From Gammaproteobacteria bacterium (lineage in GTDB: Bacteria > Pseudomonadota > Gammaproteobacteria > CBDBNL01 > G965229495): 64,000 nt of DNA. The stretch covers positions 518,603-582,602 of the forward strand of contig OZ245880.1 of NCBI GenBank assembly GCA_965229495.1, written 5' to 3'. The translations under genes were made by a program, and so were the position numbers. Under the pieces are notes generated by a model that ran no database searches, was not told the origin of the DNA, and saw only the letters and a program-made list of their open reading frames with translations. Below, one piece after another: positions 37,268-47,287 of the stretch. The stretch's first letter is position 1, and the number at the start of each line of letters is the position of its first letter.

Positions 37268-38290
37268 TTAGCGCGCGATCAGCTCGCGCACCAGTTGTTT
37301 AGTCGCCTGATAATCGTCGAGGTGAAAGATGGCGTTGTGGGCGTGGATGTAGCGTGTGGGTACGGCAATCACCACCAGTGGTGCTTTGAGCTTGTATTGC
37401 AGGGCGCCGGCGTCGGTGCCTCCGCTACGACGCACGGCGAGCTGATGAGGTACGCCGACTTCCTTAGCCACCTCAATGGTGCGATCTATCAAAGCTTTAT
37501 TAGCGGTAAAACCTGGATCGTAAAGGCGAATCTGTGGTCCTGCTTGTAAGCGGCATTGGCGCTGGTCGGGCGGCACCGAGGGATGGTCGTCGGCGGGCGC
37601 GGCTTCGAGAATTATGCCCATAGCGAATTCTGTCGTTCCCGAATAGGCTTGGGCACCGCGCGCGCCCATCTCCTCTTGAGCCGAGAAGAAAGCGTAGGGT
37701 TTGCTCGCGGTCAGGGCGTCGTCGTTCATTAGCTCCAGAGCTAGAGCTACCCCTAACCTGTTGTCGAAGGCTTTACCGACGAAGAGCTTATCGTTAGCGA
37801 GCGCGGTGAAGGCACTATCGGGAACGATGCTATCGCCGACTCGTACTCCCGATTCAGCGACCTCCCCAGCGTCAGCAGCGCCAATATCGATGCAAATAGC
37901 TTCCAGCTGCGGCGACGTTTTGTTGCCACGATTGTGGTGCGGGGGCAGGTACGCAGTTACCCCAATAATCTCCTCGCCGCTCTGGGTTATCACCCGCCAG
38001 CGCTGATTACATATGATCTCGGCTTGCCAACCACCCAATGGCGCTAAGCGCAAAAAGCCATCGTAGCTGATAGCTTGCACCATCAACCCAACCTCGTCCA
38101 TGTGCGCGCTCAGTAGCACCCGCGCGCCTGTTGGCGTGGCTGGCTCGCAGTAAAGATTGCCGAAGCTATCGCCACGACAATCGTAGTCTGTTAGTTGCGA
38201 TTGAATAAAAGCGCTCACGTTGGCCTCGTGCCCCGAGGCTCCAGCAATCTCGCTCAAGCCTTCGATTAGGCTTAGACTGGAATTCGTCAT
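37268..38290 (-). CDS. M42-family metallo-aminopeptidase (FrvX/YpdE-like)
   Basis: 340 aa with M42 metal-binding pattern (HMDEVG...DNRLG...EEMG...). Confidence 0.75.
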   Translation of the reverse strand: MTNSSLSLIEGLSEIAGASGHEANVSAFIQSQLTDYDCRGDSFGNLYCEPATPTGARVLLSAHMDEVGLMVQAISYDGFLRLAPLGGWQAEIICNQRWRVITQSGEEIIGVTAYLPPHHNRGNKTSPQLEAICIDIGAADAGEVAESGVRVGDSIVPDSAFTALANDKLFVGKAFDNRLGVALALELMNDDALTASKPYAFFSAQEEMGARGAQAYSGTTEFAMGIILEAAPADDHPSVPPDQRQCRLQAGPQIRLYDPGFTANKALIDRTIEVAKEVGVPHQLAVRRSGGTDAGALQYKLKAPLVVIAVPTRYIHAHNAIFHLDDYQATKQLVRELIAR

Positions 38291-38467
38291 TATTTGCTCT
38301 TGTTATTAGTGCATAGTGATCGACCCATGCGGGCAATAGAACTAATTGTAGCTAGCCTCGCGCGGTTATTGGTAATGCTATTGGCTGAGGCCTAGTGTGA
38401 GCGGATAATGCGGGGCACTTTTAGGTTGATCGCCATGATAGATTCTGATAATTATGAGTAAAATATA

Positions 38468-38500
38468 GCGCATTAATGTGGTTAATGGCTTATAATGCGC
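38468..38500. promoter_or_regulatory. perfect 8-bp inverted repeat GCGCATTA-N17-TAATGCGC overlapping a TATAAT -10-like hexamer just upstream of, or within the 5' end of, hipB
   Basis: Read directly from the sequence at 38468-38475 and 38493-38500, with TATAAT at 38491-38496. Its position fits a HipB autoregulatory operator. Confidence 0.35.
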
Positions 38501-38919
38501 TAAATATGTCTCTATCAAGATTGGATCTTAATCTACTTTCCAGCGCGATGATCGTGGCCTCTTTGGGGCGCGAGCTGGAGACCGTGCGGCTGCAACATAA
38601 TATCAGTCAAGCCGAATTGGCGCGCGAAGCAGGTGTATCGCGCCGCACCATCACGCGCATGGCTGAGGGTAAAGCAATATCGCTGGATTCCTTTGTGCGC
38701 GTGCTCAAGGCGCTAAAACTGGTGGATAACCTGGCAGTGCTCCTGCCTGATACCAGCGTGTCTCCCGTGGAAATGGTAGCTCGCGCCAATGAACGCAGCC
38801 ACCCATATTTAGTTACCAGCAACCCTGCGAGCATGACGGCTGGTGTTAATGGCAAAAAGCGTCGCGTGCGGCGCAAGACTAAGGTAGCCAATAAACCCTG
38901 GTCCTGGGGTGATGAATGA
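38476..38919 (+). CDS. hipB: HipB-like XRE-family HTH antitoxin (extended C-terminus)
   Basis: HTH segment LQHNISQAELAREAGVSRRTITRMAEG. Its stop overlaps the hipA start (ATGA). The true start may be the ATG at 38506 (MSLSRLDLN...). Confidence 0.65.
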   Translation: MWLMAYNALNMSLSRLDLNLLSSAMIVASLGRELETVRLQHNISQAELAREAGVSRRTITRMAEGKAISLDSFVRVLKALKLVDNLAVLLPDTSVSPVEMVARANERSHPYLVTSNPASMTAGVNGKKRRVRRKTKVANKPWSWGDE

Positions 38920-45248: not shown

Positions 45249-45455
45249 GGCTTGGGTATGCGAGCGATATCGACGGCTAGGATAACTGCAAGCTTGCTAG
45301 ATTTCGATAACCAGAGCTGATTTTCGCGATTTGCTTGGGTGTTAGGTGAGGTGCTCAGAAAGCTCTGAACAGATAAGCTCTGCTTCACCGATCTCGCTCT
45401 GGATAGATTCAGCAAATCTGAGGATTTATTCAGATATTTCTTAAGTTTAGCTTGG

Positions 45456-46172
45456 TCATGCGCGGCCATCTAGAATCGCTTCAGCCCAAGCTAAGTTAGA
45501 TGCATATTTTGCTCCCCACTTGTTTAGTTCTGGTTGTACTCCTCCAGAGTTACTTGGTCCATACTCTTTTGTGTTTGAACTCAAAAAAACGAATTTACTT
45601 CCTGAGTTGCAATTCTGTAAATCTTTACACAACCCTAAGAATAATTCATATATTTCACAATCTTTTGACGCTTCTTTGCTACGGCTTGCGGGAGGCATAT
45701 ATTGTTTTACCCGGTTCATTGCCCTGGCTGAGTGCGCTTCTTCTGGCGCAACAATTAGACAAGCGCGTAACAATGAATCAGCAATTGATCTTAAAGTCTC
45801 CAGCAAATATATTATGTCATTTGATTTCAGCGCACTATTTTGATATTCTATATTAGTTGCAGATTTAATGGCAGAAAGAAGGTGTGTTCTTTTTGATTCG
45901 AGGCCTCGAATTTCCCGTTTGGTTTCTTCTGAAACTCCTTCAAGATTTTCCTGCCACTCTTTATAAACTGTGGCGCTTGTTACTAACCACAAAGCTCGTT
46001 GGGTAGGGCTTGATAGATCTATAAGCGACTTGGCAATCTTAGCAAAATTGGAATATGTATTGTCTCTAACGGGCGATCTTACTACATCAAGTAAGATGCA
46101 AGTATTGAAATATATTAGTGGTGCGGGATTTTTAAGCATTAGTTCGAGTGCATTTGCATAGCTAGTAATCAT
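45456..46172 (-). CDS. hypothetical protein with PIN-like (VapC-like) motif arrangement (AT-rich islet)
   Basis: 238 aa. It shows N-terminal beta1-like LIYFNTCILLD, central ...EEAHSARAM... and C-terminal FVFLSSNTKEYG resembling PIN hallmark segments (compare VapC FMLDTNICI / IAGHARS / IIVTNNTREF). The first acidic position is Asn. Confidence 0.35.
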   Translation of the reverse strand: MITSYANALELMLKNPAPLIYFNTCILLDVVRSPVRDNTYSNFAKIAKSLIDLSSPTQRALWLVTSATVYKEWQENLEGVSEETKREIRGLESKRTHLLSAIKSATNIEYQNSALKSNDIIYLLETLRSIADSLLRACLIVAPEEAHSARAMNRVKQYMPPASRSKEASKDCEIYELFLGLCKDLQNCNSGSKFVFLSSNTKEYGPSNSGGVQPELNKWGAKYASNLAWAEAILDGRA

Positions 46173-46808
46173 TTAGCGTGTCTCCACATATGACAGTAGA
46201 TCTTGTGCAAACTCAAATTGACCGCCTAGCATGGATGCCACGTCTTCTGACCAGCCACGTTCAACTAAAGTTCGAATTACTATGTCTGGGTCAAGGTCCG
46301 GCTTTGCTTCTTGAGCTAATACTAAAAATTCAAGCCAGCGCCTGTTATCTGATGGATGCGAACTTCCAGTTGATTTATTTGCCAAATCGGAGAAAAGCAT
46401 TAGCGCTTTTTCTACTTCTTCTCCAGCAACTTTACCAATACTTATTTGATCGCTTGTCAGCTCGGCGGTAGTAGAAATACCCTCAATTGCTGGAGTAACA
46501 ATATTTTCGTAGAAATTCTCCAGTGCAAAATTATATTGATCATAGGTGAGGCTGCCACTTCCAGTGGGAATGATATTAGAAACCCACAAAGTATCGTTAT
46601 CTTTTTGGAATATAAATAATTCTGACGGAGACACACTACTCCCTTCTTGCGCTTCAAAGCAAATAGATTTATCTACTGCGATTTCACGATTTTTTTCTTT
46701 ATCTCGCCCTCGAATCCACGGGGCTTTTAACTCATTTTCTAATTTATCTAGAAAATCGTTAGAACTAATACCGTTAAGGTAAATATACAGATCACGAAAA
46801 GTTTTCAT
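46173..46808 (-). CDS. hypothetical protein (AT-rich islet), upstream partner of the PIN-like ORF
   Basis: 211 aa with no recognisable motif. Its stop abuts the start of the next ORF, a two-gene operon arrangement. Confidence 0.4.
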   Translation of the reverse strand: MKTFRDLYIYLNGISSNDFLDKLENELKAPWIRGRDKEKNREIAVDKSICFEAQEGSSVSPSELFIFQKDNDTLWVSNIIPTGSGSLTYDQYNFALENFYENIVTPAIEGISTTAELTSDQISIGKVAGEEVEKALMLFSDLANKSTGSSHPSDNRRWLEFLVLAQEAKPDLDPDIVIRTLVERGWSEDVASMLGGQFEFAQDLLSYVETR

Positions 46809-47287
46809 ATTTCATCTGGTTCCCGTTGTGAGTTTTGTCAATTTGATGGGCGGCGTTCTGAGGTCTTGTTATGGCTAGAAAATGACCGAATGCCATAGAG
46901 TAGCAGTCGAGTAAATTTGTCATGCCTGTGACGATTATTCTGCAATAAGCTATTTGACAATTTTTTGCGAGTCAGCTGGATTTGGCTTATAGGGCAATGA
47001 TGACGAGTTGGGTGTCTATTGTTGCATGGGTAGGCCACAAAATGATTACTTACGCGCCAGAACATCTGCACCGAAGCTCTCGGAGCTCCTAGTATCAAAG
47101 AACACGTGCCAAGTGCTAGTTTACCTAGTAAGTATGCCTCCACCATGCTGAGTCTGCTAATTTTGCCTGCTCGCGCATCTCTGATGAACAACTAGCTAAA
47201 AAATCATCATTTCTGACGATTGCGCGCTTATCCGGGCTGGTGTATGGTTTGTTTTGATTGTTAAAACAAACCATAAGGGAGGGTTTT

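Follow-up and report, generated by a model that had tools for sequence, protein, structure and literature searches.

In this work, we have analysed a 64-kb stretch of gammaproteobacterial DNA (64,000 nucleotides; assembly GCA_965229495.1, contig OZ245880.1, positions 518,603 to 582,602), here called the window, to whose positions all bare coordinates refer, and in it the interval between an M42 peptidase gene and an amidase gene. From left to right this interval carries a hipBA gene pair, insertion sequences (ISs), the tail of a Fic gene, a gene for a membrane protein, marC and an AT-rich cassette formed by the genes PIN_12 and p211. We propose, with a probability of about three in four, that it is a chromosomal plasticity zone located at the breakpoint of a large rearrangement and built stepwise, and not by the insertion of one island. 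The sequence shows that an IS481-family element landed beside hipA, that an IS3 element truncated it, and that a second IS3, still intact, disrupted the first; that a SoFic-type gene lost the 5΄ 60% of its length together with its catalytic motif, its remnant now lying between inverted IS-end-like copies; and that marC and the membrane-protein gene are extra DNA with respect to the two relatives that share the amidase flank. Inversion of the block 3932-42973 is the proposed origin of the junctions, the rearrangements and adjacent deletions may have been IS-mediated or produced by illegitimate recombination, and one or both marC copies, as well as the middle of the p211-PIN_12 cassette, would have been gained by recombination with diverged relatives, as suggested by marC differences that are all synonymous and by a PIN_12 synonymous divergence (dS) three times that of the core genes.

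All the elements that a first-pass annotation had listed (hipBA, the IS3 elements, Fic, the membrane-protein open reading frame (ORF), marC and the PIN cassette) were recovered by our gene calls, which combine the ORF listing with Pfam, NCBIfam and PADLOC scans of the window ORFs. The close relatives used here are contigs from ENA metagenome assemblies, labelled L081 to L087 and L092. Two of them, L081 and L082, both metagenome-assembled from one sample, carry p211 homologues (91% and 84% amino acid identity, respectively) and have overall nucleotide identities to the window of 91.6% and 92.4% (blastn). L083, L084 and L085 are three contigs with marC whose neighbours were examined, and L086 has a 96%-identical M42 peptidase gene. 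A scan of GTDB representatives with MarC gave 80 loci, all at 74% identity or less and none with M42 or a close amidase nearby, a 40%-identical amidase lying 6 kb from marC in a single locus (L023), and the first metagenome scan with M42 as query gave no match.

Comparison with related contigs

On the amidase side, L081 and L082 are colinear with the window, in L081 from around 56330 down to PIN_12, and the AT-rich p211-PIN_12 cassette thus adjoins the amidase in all three lineages. Past the end of PIN_12 (window 45438) there follows in both relatives a 74-bp segment bearing ACCACAGAT-type repeats, equivalent to window 43047-42974, and then the sequence found in the window from 3932 onward (GerE, paaK, paaZ). 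In the window this segment (42974-43047) adjoins 42973, so that the breakpoint falls at 42973/42974; in L081 and L082 it is joined to 3932 and lies between the PIN_12 stop and GerE. Because the end of PIN_12 is joined straight to the 74-bp segment in these relatives, marC and the membrane-protein gene (43048-45437) are absent there. On the M42 side, L086 shares only window 33102-38284; the shared sequence ends at the M42 start, and upstream of it L086 has CMAS, MFS and a giant protein instead of hipBA, which is not present beside its M42 gene. Since the shared flanks end at the M42 start and at the PIN_12 end, the window-specific content is 38291-45437. The first-pass annotation had proposed comparing the M42-to-amidase interval across related strains. 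In the relatives there is no indication that these two genes delimit a shared interval: GerE and paa stand beside the cassette, CMAS and MFS beside M42, and in none of the retrieved relatives does M42 lie near the amidase-side block.

The distal junction of the window, at 3931/3932, has its own particularities. GerE is 248 aa long in the window and 255 aa in L082, its last codons being replaced at this junction, and a truncated marC fragment (3791-3917) sits at the same breakpoint. The simplest reading of these junctions is that the 39-kb block 3932-42973 may have been inverted, of which only the 3932 junction is seen in relatives. Homologous recombination between the inverted marC copies was considered as the sole inversion event and rejected, because flipping 3918-44601 fails to recreate the junction of the 74-bp segment with GerE. 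A replication terminus at the interval was also discarded: the GC skew, positive over 1-38290, is negative beyond 45438, the cumulative skew forms a plateau and not a peak, and there is no dif-like site at up to 8 mismatches.

The paa genes are split in the window, with paaK, paaI, paaG and paaZ plus the GerE regulator at 3918-11416 and paaABCDE at ~53.7-57.4 kb (53163-57367). In L081 and L082 these halves stand directly on either side of the amidase-ABC-cassette block; in the window they are ~40 kb apart.

A 146-bp palindromic repeat is present at 22571-22716, with termini TTGAGACC...GGTCTCAA and a predicted long hairpin (-30 kcal/mol, z -4.3). The window has a single copy and ~123 kb of the relatives' loci (L081-L087) have 17, several of which adjoin synteny breaks, as they do directly upstream of marC in L084 and, in L081, in the gap that separates PIN_12 from the 74-bp segment. 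The repeat resembles a clade-specific element of the miniature inverted-repeat transposable element or repetitive extragenic palindrome type. It has no Rfam match, nor did the Rfam scan find one anywhere in the window, and the promoter and terminator scan gave a signal near the shuffled background. The blocks of synteny shared with relatives are short everywhere (5-11 kb), and with this repeat beside several of the breaks the clade is a possible model for repeat-driven genome shuffling.

marC and base composition

The marC gene (NAAT family; coding sequence 44622-45248, minus strand; 44602-45274 with short flanks) is full length, with 167.1 bits against TIGR00427 (cutoff 99.2), and has orthologues in the clade at 88-98% amino acid identity. 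Its neighbours differ among L083-L085 (Rieske/marC/ABC, RelB-YafQ/marC/PutA and SerS/marC/ABC), and only window 44616-45274 is common to the relatives' marC loci, apart from 97 nt of intergenic sequence found 2.2 kb further off in L083. The last 107 nt of marC and the 20 nt that follow them are present a second time, inverted, on the plus strand at 3791-3917, between lgt (2945-3760) and GerE and 40.7 kb from the full gene, with 92% identity to 44602-44728. The coding differences between the two tails (7/7) are third-position and synonymous, and the 35 encoded residues are identical. This is the pattern that divergence between two functional alleles should leave, and not the one that neutral decay of a recent duplicate should, so that at least one copy was probably acquired by recombination with a diverged but related lineage. 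The idea that marC served as a conserved, fixed anchor must then be abandoned: with its absence from the locus in L081 and L082, its three sets of neighbours elsewhere and its second 3΄ fragment, marC is conserved as a gene, not as a positional anchor, and is itself one of the displaced pieces.

The repeated switches of composition noticed at first inspection were confirmed and exceed chance, yet foreign composition is limited to three genes. With the 43 other ORFs of the window as reference (GC 0.565 +/- 0.044; GC at third codon positions, GC3, 0.670 +/- 0.068), the membrane-protein gene has a GC of 0.355 and a GC3 of 0.342 (z -4.8 in both), and PIN_12 and p211 each have a GC of 0.392 and a GC3 of 0.297 (z -3.9 to -4.0 and -5.5), which places the three genes 3.9-5.5 standard deviations (SD) below the reference. 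The values for marC are 0.590 and 0.656 (z 0.6 and -0.2), and hipBA, whose GC is like that of core genes, the two IS3 elements and the Fic tail deviate from the core by no more than ~1.7 SD. Base composition was here a misleading guide, since the GC-rich marC is positionally unstable and partly duplicated and the AT-rich cassette is positionally conserved; the cassette is found at its window position beside the amidase in L081 and L082 alike, contrary to the recent arrival that had been supposed. Elsewhere in the window, a further AT-rich ORF of 201 aa (27819-28424; GC 0.356, GC3 0.361), without a Pfam or PHROG match, is probably another single-gene foreign islet.

Insertion sequences and the Fic remnant

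The inner IS3-family element (40611-42034, minus strand, 1,424 bp) has 40-nt imperfect terminal inverted repeats of the TG...CA type, 73% complementary, and is bordered by a 3-bp target duplication, GAG, at 40608-40610 and 42035-42037. Its orfA corresponds to HTH_Tnp_1, its orfB (DDE/rve) scores 316.6 bits against transpos_IS3 (cutoff 160), and past an A6G slippery site at 41702 the -1 frame stays open for 304 codons, so the element is apparently intact. It is inserted inside the orfA of an outer, older IS3 element lying on the plus strand, of which the left end (40511-40610) keeps the inverted repeat TGATACTCCCCA... followed by orfA codons 1-14, and the remainder (42038 to ~42392) keeps what follows of orfA, with an A7G slippery site, and orfB as far as codon ~35, where it is truncated. 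Excision of the inner element with one GAG restores the frame, and the joined pieces (40511-40610 and 42038 on) encode a continuous OrfA with some 35 N-terminal residues of OrfB after it. Taken together, the duplicated target and the recovered reading frame demonstrate the nested insertion that the first-pass annotation had suspected. Fragments of the outer element do lie on both sides of the inner one, as had been stated, although the left fragment is 40511-40610 and not 40567-40740, of which 40611-40740 belongs to the inner IS. The outer element is a relic, because its joined product retains only positions 1-119 of 369 of the transpos_IS3 model (E 1e-18). Among 72,556 plasmid records there is no close DNA relative of either IS3 element, the best matches being 65-72% over partial stretches.

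Between hipA and the outer IS3 lies an AT-rich spacer that had been described as 480 bp of non-coding DNA; it actually measures 287 bp (40224-40510, GC 0.383) and holds the decayed 3΄ terminal piece of an IS481-family element (40345 to ~40505, minus strand), detected by homology to an intact IS in L081. About 160 bp are left, cut off by the outer IS3. The relic is 77% identical in nucleotides to the terminus of the L081 element and matches by tblastn, with a frameshift, residues 283-321 of its 322-aa transposase, a protein that gives 251.2 bits against transpos_IS481 (cutoff 224). As the IS481 relic is cut by the outer IS3 and the outer IS3 is split by the inner one, the order of arrival was the IS481-like element, the outer IS3 and the inner IS3.

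The left end of the outer IS carries a 9-mer, TACTCCCCA, that occurs three times in the window (0.10 expected), always in this region: at 40514 (plus strand, the outer IS end), at 42400 (plus, just past the orfB break) and at 42861 (minus, directly after the Fic stop). The second occurrence belongs to an IS-end-like sequence (42396-42450, plus strand) that is colinear with the left end of the outer IS and shares with it both TACTCCCCA and ACTAA..TTAAGAT.AAA; the third belongs to another (42859-42872, minus strand) that is a 13/14 inverted match to the second. The score of this inverted match was reached by 0 of 500 shuffles, and the two sequences enclose the Fic tail. The arrangement may reflect either IS-mediated adjacent deletions or a cassette flanked by IS ends; that the Fic tail between them constitutes a mobile insertion cassette is a lesser possibility, the target duplication of such a putative unit being ambiguous (at best TAA versus TAG).

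The Fic tail (42467-42859, plus strand) comes from a SoFic-type gene truncated at its 5΄ end, with the C-terminal helices, the winged helix-turn-helix (HTH) and the native C-terminus kept and the 5΄ 60% of the gene gone. Its alignment to a 331-aa Fic protein of Salinivibrio kushneri covers residues 197-330 of that protein (63% amino acid identity, 77% nucleotide identity over part), and in the PADLOC SoFic model it matches positions 223-340 of 361 (E 1.3e-9); it also matches HTH_24. The catalytic motif HPFx[D/E]GNGR is not present and there is no Pfam Fic match; the alignment begins just past the HPFSDGNGR motif of the Salinivibrio homologue, which means that the catalytic core has been lost. 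The Salinivibrio gene lies between hsdS and hsdR of a type I restriction-modification (R-M) operon, and the contig of one relative also has a Fic gene adjoining hsdR. The suggestion that this piece may once have belonged to a functional toxin or defence locus is supported to the extent that it is the relic of a SoFic-type gene. Within the window, neither hsd remnants nor the missing 5΄ half of the Fic gene are detectable. The search for them gave only an intact Fic-domain gene at 15576-16181 (201 aa, Pfam Fic E 1.1e-13), which is unrelated to the relic, with 50% identity only over the 28-residue motif region. The Fic tail also contains, at 42625-42663, three tandem 12-nt units (AAACGCCCCTGT-like) encoding an (N/S)APV repeat linker, and the Salinivibrio homologue has the same kind of linker repeat (NAPVSAPVSAPVN). 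The Fic relic and the IS stubs would appear to be dead.

The p211-PIN_12 cassette, the membrane protein and hipBA

The PIN_12 gene (45456-46172, minus strand; 238 aa) codes for a nuclease-like protein of the DUF4935 family (PF16289), with 38.7 bits against a cutoff of 32 and a match that covers model positions 1-172 of 172. Directly upstream, and abutting it, is p211 (46173-46808, minus strand), which codes for a 211-aa partner with 48 homologues among 5.8 billion proteins. In 6 of the 7 other loci examined, these six being from alpha-, beta- and gamma-proteobacteria, p211 is immediately followed by PIN_12. The pair is found next to the amidase-ABC flank in L081 and L082, beside NikA/relaxase and RelA_SpoT/HD genes in Nitrosomonas marina, with an integrase at mutS in Acinetobacter sp. 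ANC 3791, with a ThiF-JAB-SAVED operon, IS30 and Phd/VapC on a conjugative plasmid of Sinorhizobium meliloti, and with DUF3800 and PP2C genes on a plasmid of S. chiapasense; a Fischerella plasmid has a p211 homologue alone, without PIN_12. The AlphaFold2 (AF2) model of p211 (predicted local distance difference test, pLDDT, 89.7) consists of an N-terminal KA1/TBP-like alpha/beta domain and a C-terminal helical bundle. Foldseek found no significant structural neighbour for it, the best being RnlA (E 6e-3, template modelling score 0.28), and it has neither a Pfam or NCBIfam domain nor a small DNA-binding antitoxin domain (HTH, ribbon-helix-helix (RHH) or AbrB). In PADLOC v2, no match better than E 0.0077 was obtained with p211, PIN_12 or the membrane protein, and none of the three matched PHROG. 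Because the pair is conserved, often stands beside mobile or defence genes and is missing from PADLOC, it is a candidate for a new family of toxin-antitoxin (TA) or defence systems.

Divergence within the cassette is uneven. Between the window and L081 or L082, the core flanking genes have a dS of 0.24-0.26 and a ratio of nonsynonymous to synonymous divergence (dN/dS) of 0.07-0.15, p211 has 0.29-0.31 and 0.18-0.28, and PIN_12 reaches a dS of 0.72-0.82, three times the core, with a dN/dS of 0.19 that speaks for purifying selection during most of the history of the gene. Sliding-window identity to L081 and L082 confines the excess to a tract of ~600 bp (45710-46310; 66-87% nucleotide identity versus 91-96% in the flanks) that covers the C-terminus of p211 and the N-terminal two-thirds of PIN_12, and which resembles either a tract of allelic replacement or an interface that evolves fast. 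The PIN_12 homologues carry conserved acidic motifs, and the first catalytic Asp (LDTC motif) is kept in all 6 that were aligned, L081, L082 and four others. In the window this residue is Asn23 (AAT; GAT in L081 and L082), and the window nuclease is probably crippled by the Asp23Asn change.

From these data we infer that p211-PIN_12 may be a mobile two-gene module with a TA or anti-phage function. The more specific proposal, of an undescribed module in which the nuclease would be controlled by a partner without a DNA-binding fold, the exchanged tract would be the interface or specificity region and the window allele would be disarmed, is tentative, and we rate its chances somewhat below even. 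The pair spans Sinorhizobium plasmids, Nitrosomonas, Acinetobacter and the clade studied here, and the window provides a natural catalytic-site variant for comparison. Around the cassette, L081 has an IS481-family element inserted in the 3΄ end of PIN_12 (L081 11278-12545), and in L082 a DUF6680 gene (L082 9113-9822) is inserted at the equivalent of window 46987 and the amidase is split into two ORFs (L082 7425-8810).

The membrane-protein gene (43180-44346, minus strand) codes for a helical protein of 388 aa from a small unannotated family: neither the protein nor its homologues, 29 of which were included, had a Pfam, NCBIfam, PADLOC or PHROG match. It has 137 representative clusters at E <=1e-3, the best at 45% identity. 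The AF2 model is confident and all-helical (pLDDT 86, predicted template modelling score 0.78) and has no neighbour in the PDB (best E 0.29). A homologue is found as a solitary gene in two metagenome contigs, and in one of them (L092) it is AT-rich between GC-rich flanks. The gene would be a single-gene mobile orphan that moves horizontally. Upstream of it, an intergenic stretch of 48 nt (44403-44450) is repeated directly, with 83% identity, at 62147-62194, 18 kb away.

At the other end of the interval, the hipB-like gene (38476-38919, plus strand) encodes an XRE/HTH antitoxin (HTH_3, 40.5 bits, E 2.9e-10; TIGR03070 couple_hipB, E 6e-8, under the model cutoff), and the co-oriented hipA-family kinase toxin gene (38916-40223, plus strand; full length, 435 aa) follows it with a 4-bp overlap. 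HipA contains HipA_C (169.4 bits, cutoff 30.5; E 1.1e-49) and Couple_hipA (69.2 bits, cutoff 22.5; E 4.5e-19). To judge from these features, the two genes would form an intact kinase TA pair. An inverted repeat at 38456-38512, with a perfect 10-nt core TAGCGCATTA/TAATGCGCTA at 38466-38502 separated by a 17-nt spacer, spans the hipB start and may be the HipB operator. As this putative operator lies at the annotated start, the true start codon of hipB may be further downstream.

Alternative explanations

Is this interval simply a genomic island? A single classical genomic or defence island, inserted between M42 and the amidase, with a resident marC inside or beside it, and decayed afterwards, would account for the clustering of toxin- and defence-type genes with ISs and for the sharp changes in composition. 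We regard it as highly improbable, since the classical marks are missing (no tRNA in 64 kb, no integrase among the ORFs, no flanking direct repeats), the cassette of the relatives adjoins GerE and paa, and the lone close M42 locus runs into CMAS and MFS. Moreover, the pieces differ in history, the PIN cassette being positionally conserved and marC and the membrane-protein gene being absent in L081 and L082, and they differ in composition too, with core-like GC in hipBA, the IS elements and the Fic tail and 35-39% in the membrane-protein gene and the cassette. Of the earlier picture of a serially invaded and partly decayed region, the invasions (at least three different IS elements) and the variability between relatives stand; the single inserted island does not. 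A misassembly, in which repeats caused chimeric joins in either the source contig or the relatives' contigs, is barely credible: IS copies and the clade-wide 146-bp repeat could mislead assemblers, and the relatives are metagenome contigs, but the nested IS has a clean target duplication, the same junctions were obtained independently in L081 and L082, and the sole repeats within the window that touch the region, of 127 bp (92%) and 48 bp (83%), are too short and too diverged for a misjoin in a 2.68-Mb contig. It is unlikely, though less so, that the order in the window is ancestral and that L081 and L082 deleted marC and the membrane-protein gene and translocated the paa block. Both relatives carry their own IS insertions nearby, and, originating from a single sample, they are nearer to one another (dS 0.06-0.18) than either is to the window in core genes, so that they count as about one independent lineage; however, the replaced 3΄ end of GerE and the truncated marC fragment are signs of a derived junction in the window, and the paa halves, distant in the window, stand around the amidase-ABC-cassette block in the relatives.

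Whether the region defends the cell today is another question. That hipBA, p211-PIN_12 and the membrane protein all now protect against phages or plasmids agrees with the intactness of hipBA, p211 and the membrane ORF, with the selection on PIN_12 (dN/dS 0.19), with the defence or mobile neighbourhoods of p211-PIN_12 elsewhere and with the report that Cosus, a PIN12-domain integron cassette, protects against T7, protection dropping strongly with T12A, D14A or D96A (bioRxiv 10.1101/2024.07.02.601719). We consider an active defence island doubtful, because no PADLOC model was matched by hipBA, p211-PIN_12 or the membrane protein, PIN_12 lacks the first catalytic Asp, which is invariant in 6 homologues, and Fic is dead. 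Several points also weigh against the plasticity zone that we favour, or against parts of it. The reciprocal junction, from the lgt side to the Fic/IS side, is seen in no relative, which leaves a simple inversion unproven; neither 3931/3932 nor 42973/42974 coincides exactly with an IS or long repeat; the 74-bp marker is in part found again elsewhere in L083; the direction of the event is deduced from two metagenome-assembled relatives of one sample; and, as synteny blocks are short everywhere, the junction may typify a generally shuffled genome and not a special hotspot. As for the nuclease, Asn23 might be tolerated, given the purifying selection on PIN_12. Taken as a whole the phenomenon is ordinary, a textbook plasticity zone with TA modules, IS scars and decayed defence genes; the chief value of the analysis lies in annotation and in caution, and the p211-PIN_12 pair is the part worth pursuing.

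Comparison with known systems

The hipBA pair resembles type II HipBA systems in its overlapping genes, in the HTH antitoxin placed upstream and in the N-terminal coupling and C-terminal kinase domains of HipA. It departs from those characterised in that HipA reaches no more than 50.8 bits with the YjjJ equivalog, for which the cutoff is 401, and finds its sole PDB sequence matches in Legionella HipT-like proteins (E ~4e-10), and in that the predicted HipB has 147 aa with a long C-terminal tail. Both IS3 elements have the orfA/orfB organisation of their family with a -1 frameshift site (A6G in the inner, A7G in the outer), and TG...CA inverted repeats, a 3-bp target duplication and nesting of one IS in another are also found here as in that family. 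Unlike an intact IS3, the outer copy lacks ~90% of orfB, and unlike a typical one, a second left-end-like sequence and its inverted partner enclose a fragment of a non-IS gene. The Fic tail, by its homology to the Salinivibrio protein and to the PADLOC SoFic model, is akin to the SoFic genes of type I R-M operons, from which it differs in being a relic, with the motif and the upstream part gone and no hsd genes around.

DUF4935 (PF16289) has been placed in the VapC group as a family of unknown function, usually mono-cistronic and of ~350 aa (Matelska et al. 2017, PMC5499597). The window protein belongs with it by its score above the Pfam gathering threshold and by the acidic motifs of its homologues. 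In contrast to the family as described, it is always preceded by a 211-aa partner gene, and so is not mono-cistronic, and has 238 aa; in contrast to its own homologues, the window copy has Asn in place of the first catalytic Asp. It is not in PADLOC v2. As in type II TA systems of the VapBC kind, the two genes are a conserved, co-oriented pair with abutting stop and start; unlike the antitoxins of those systems, p211 is large and has no HTH, RHH or AbrB domain. RnlA-type anti-phage toxins combine TBP-like NTD/NRD domains with a nuclease domain, and it is RnlA that gave the best, non-significant, Foldseek match of p211.

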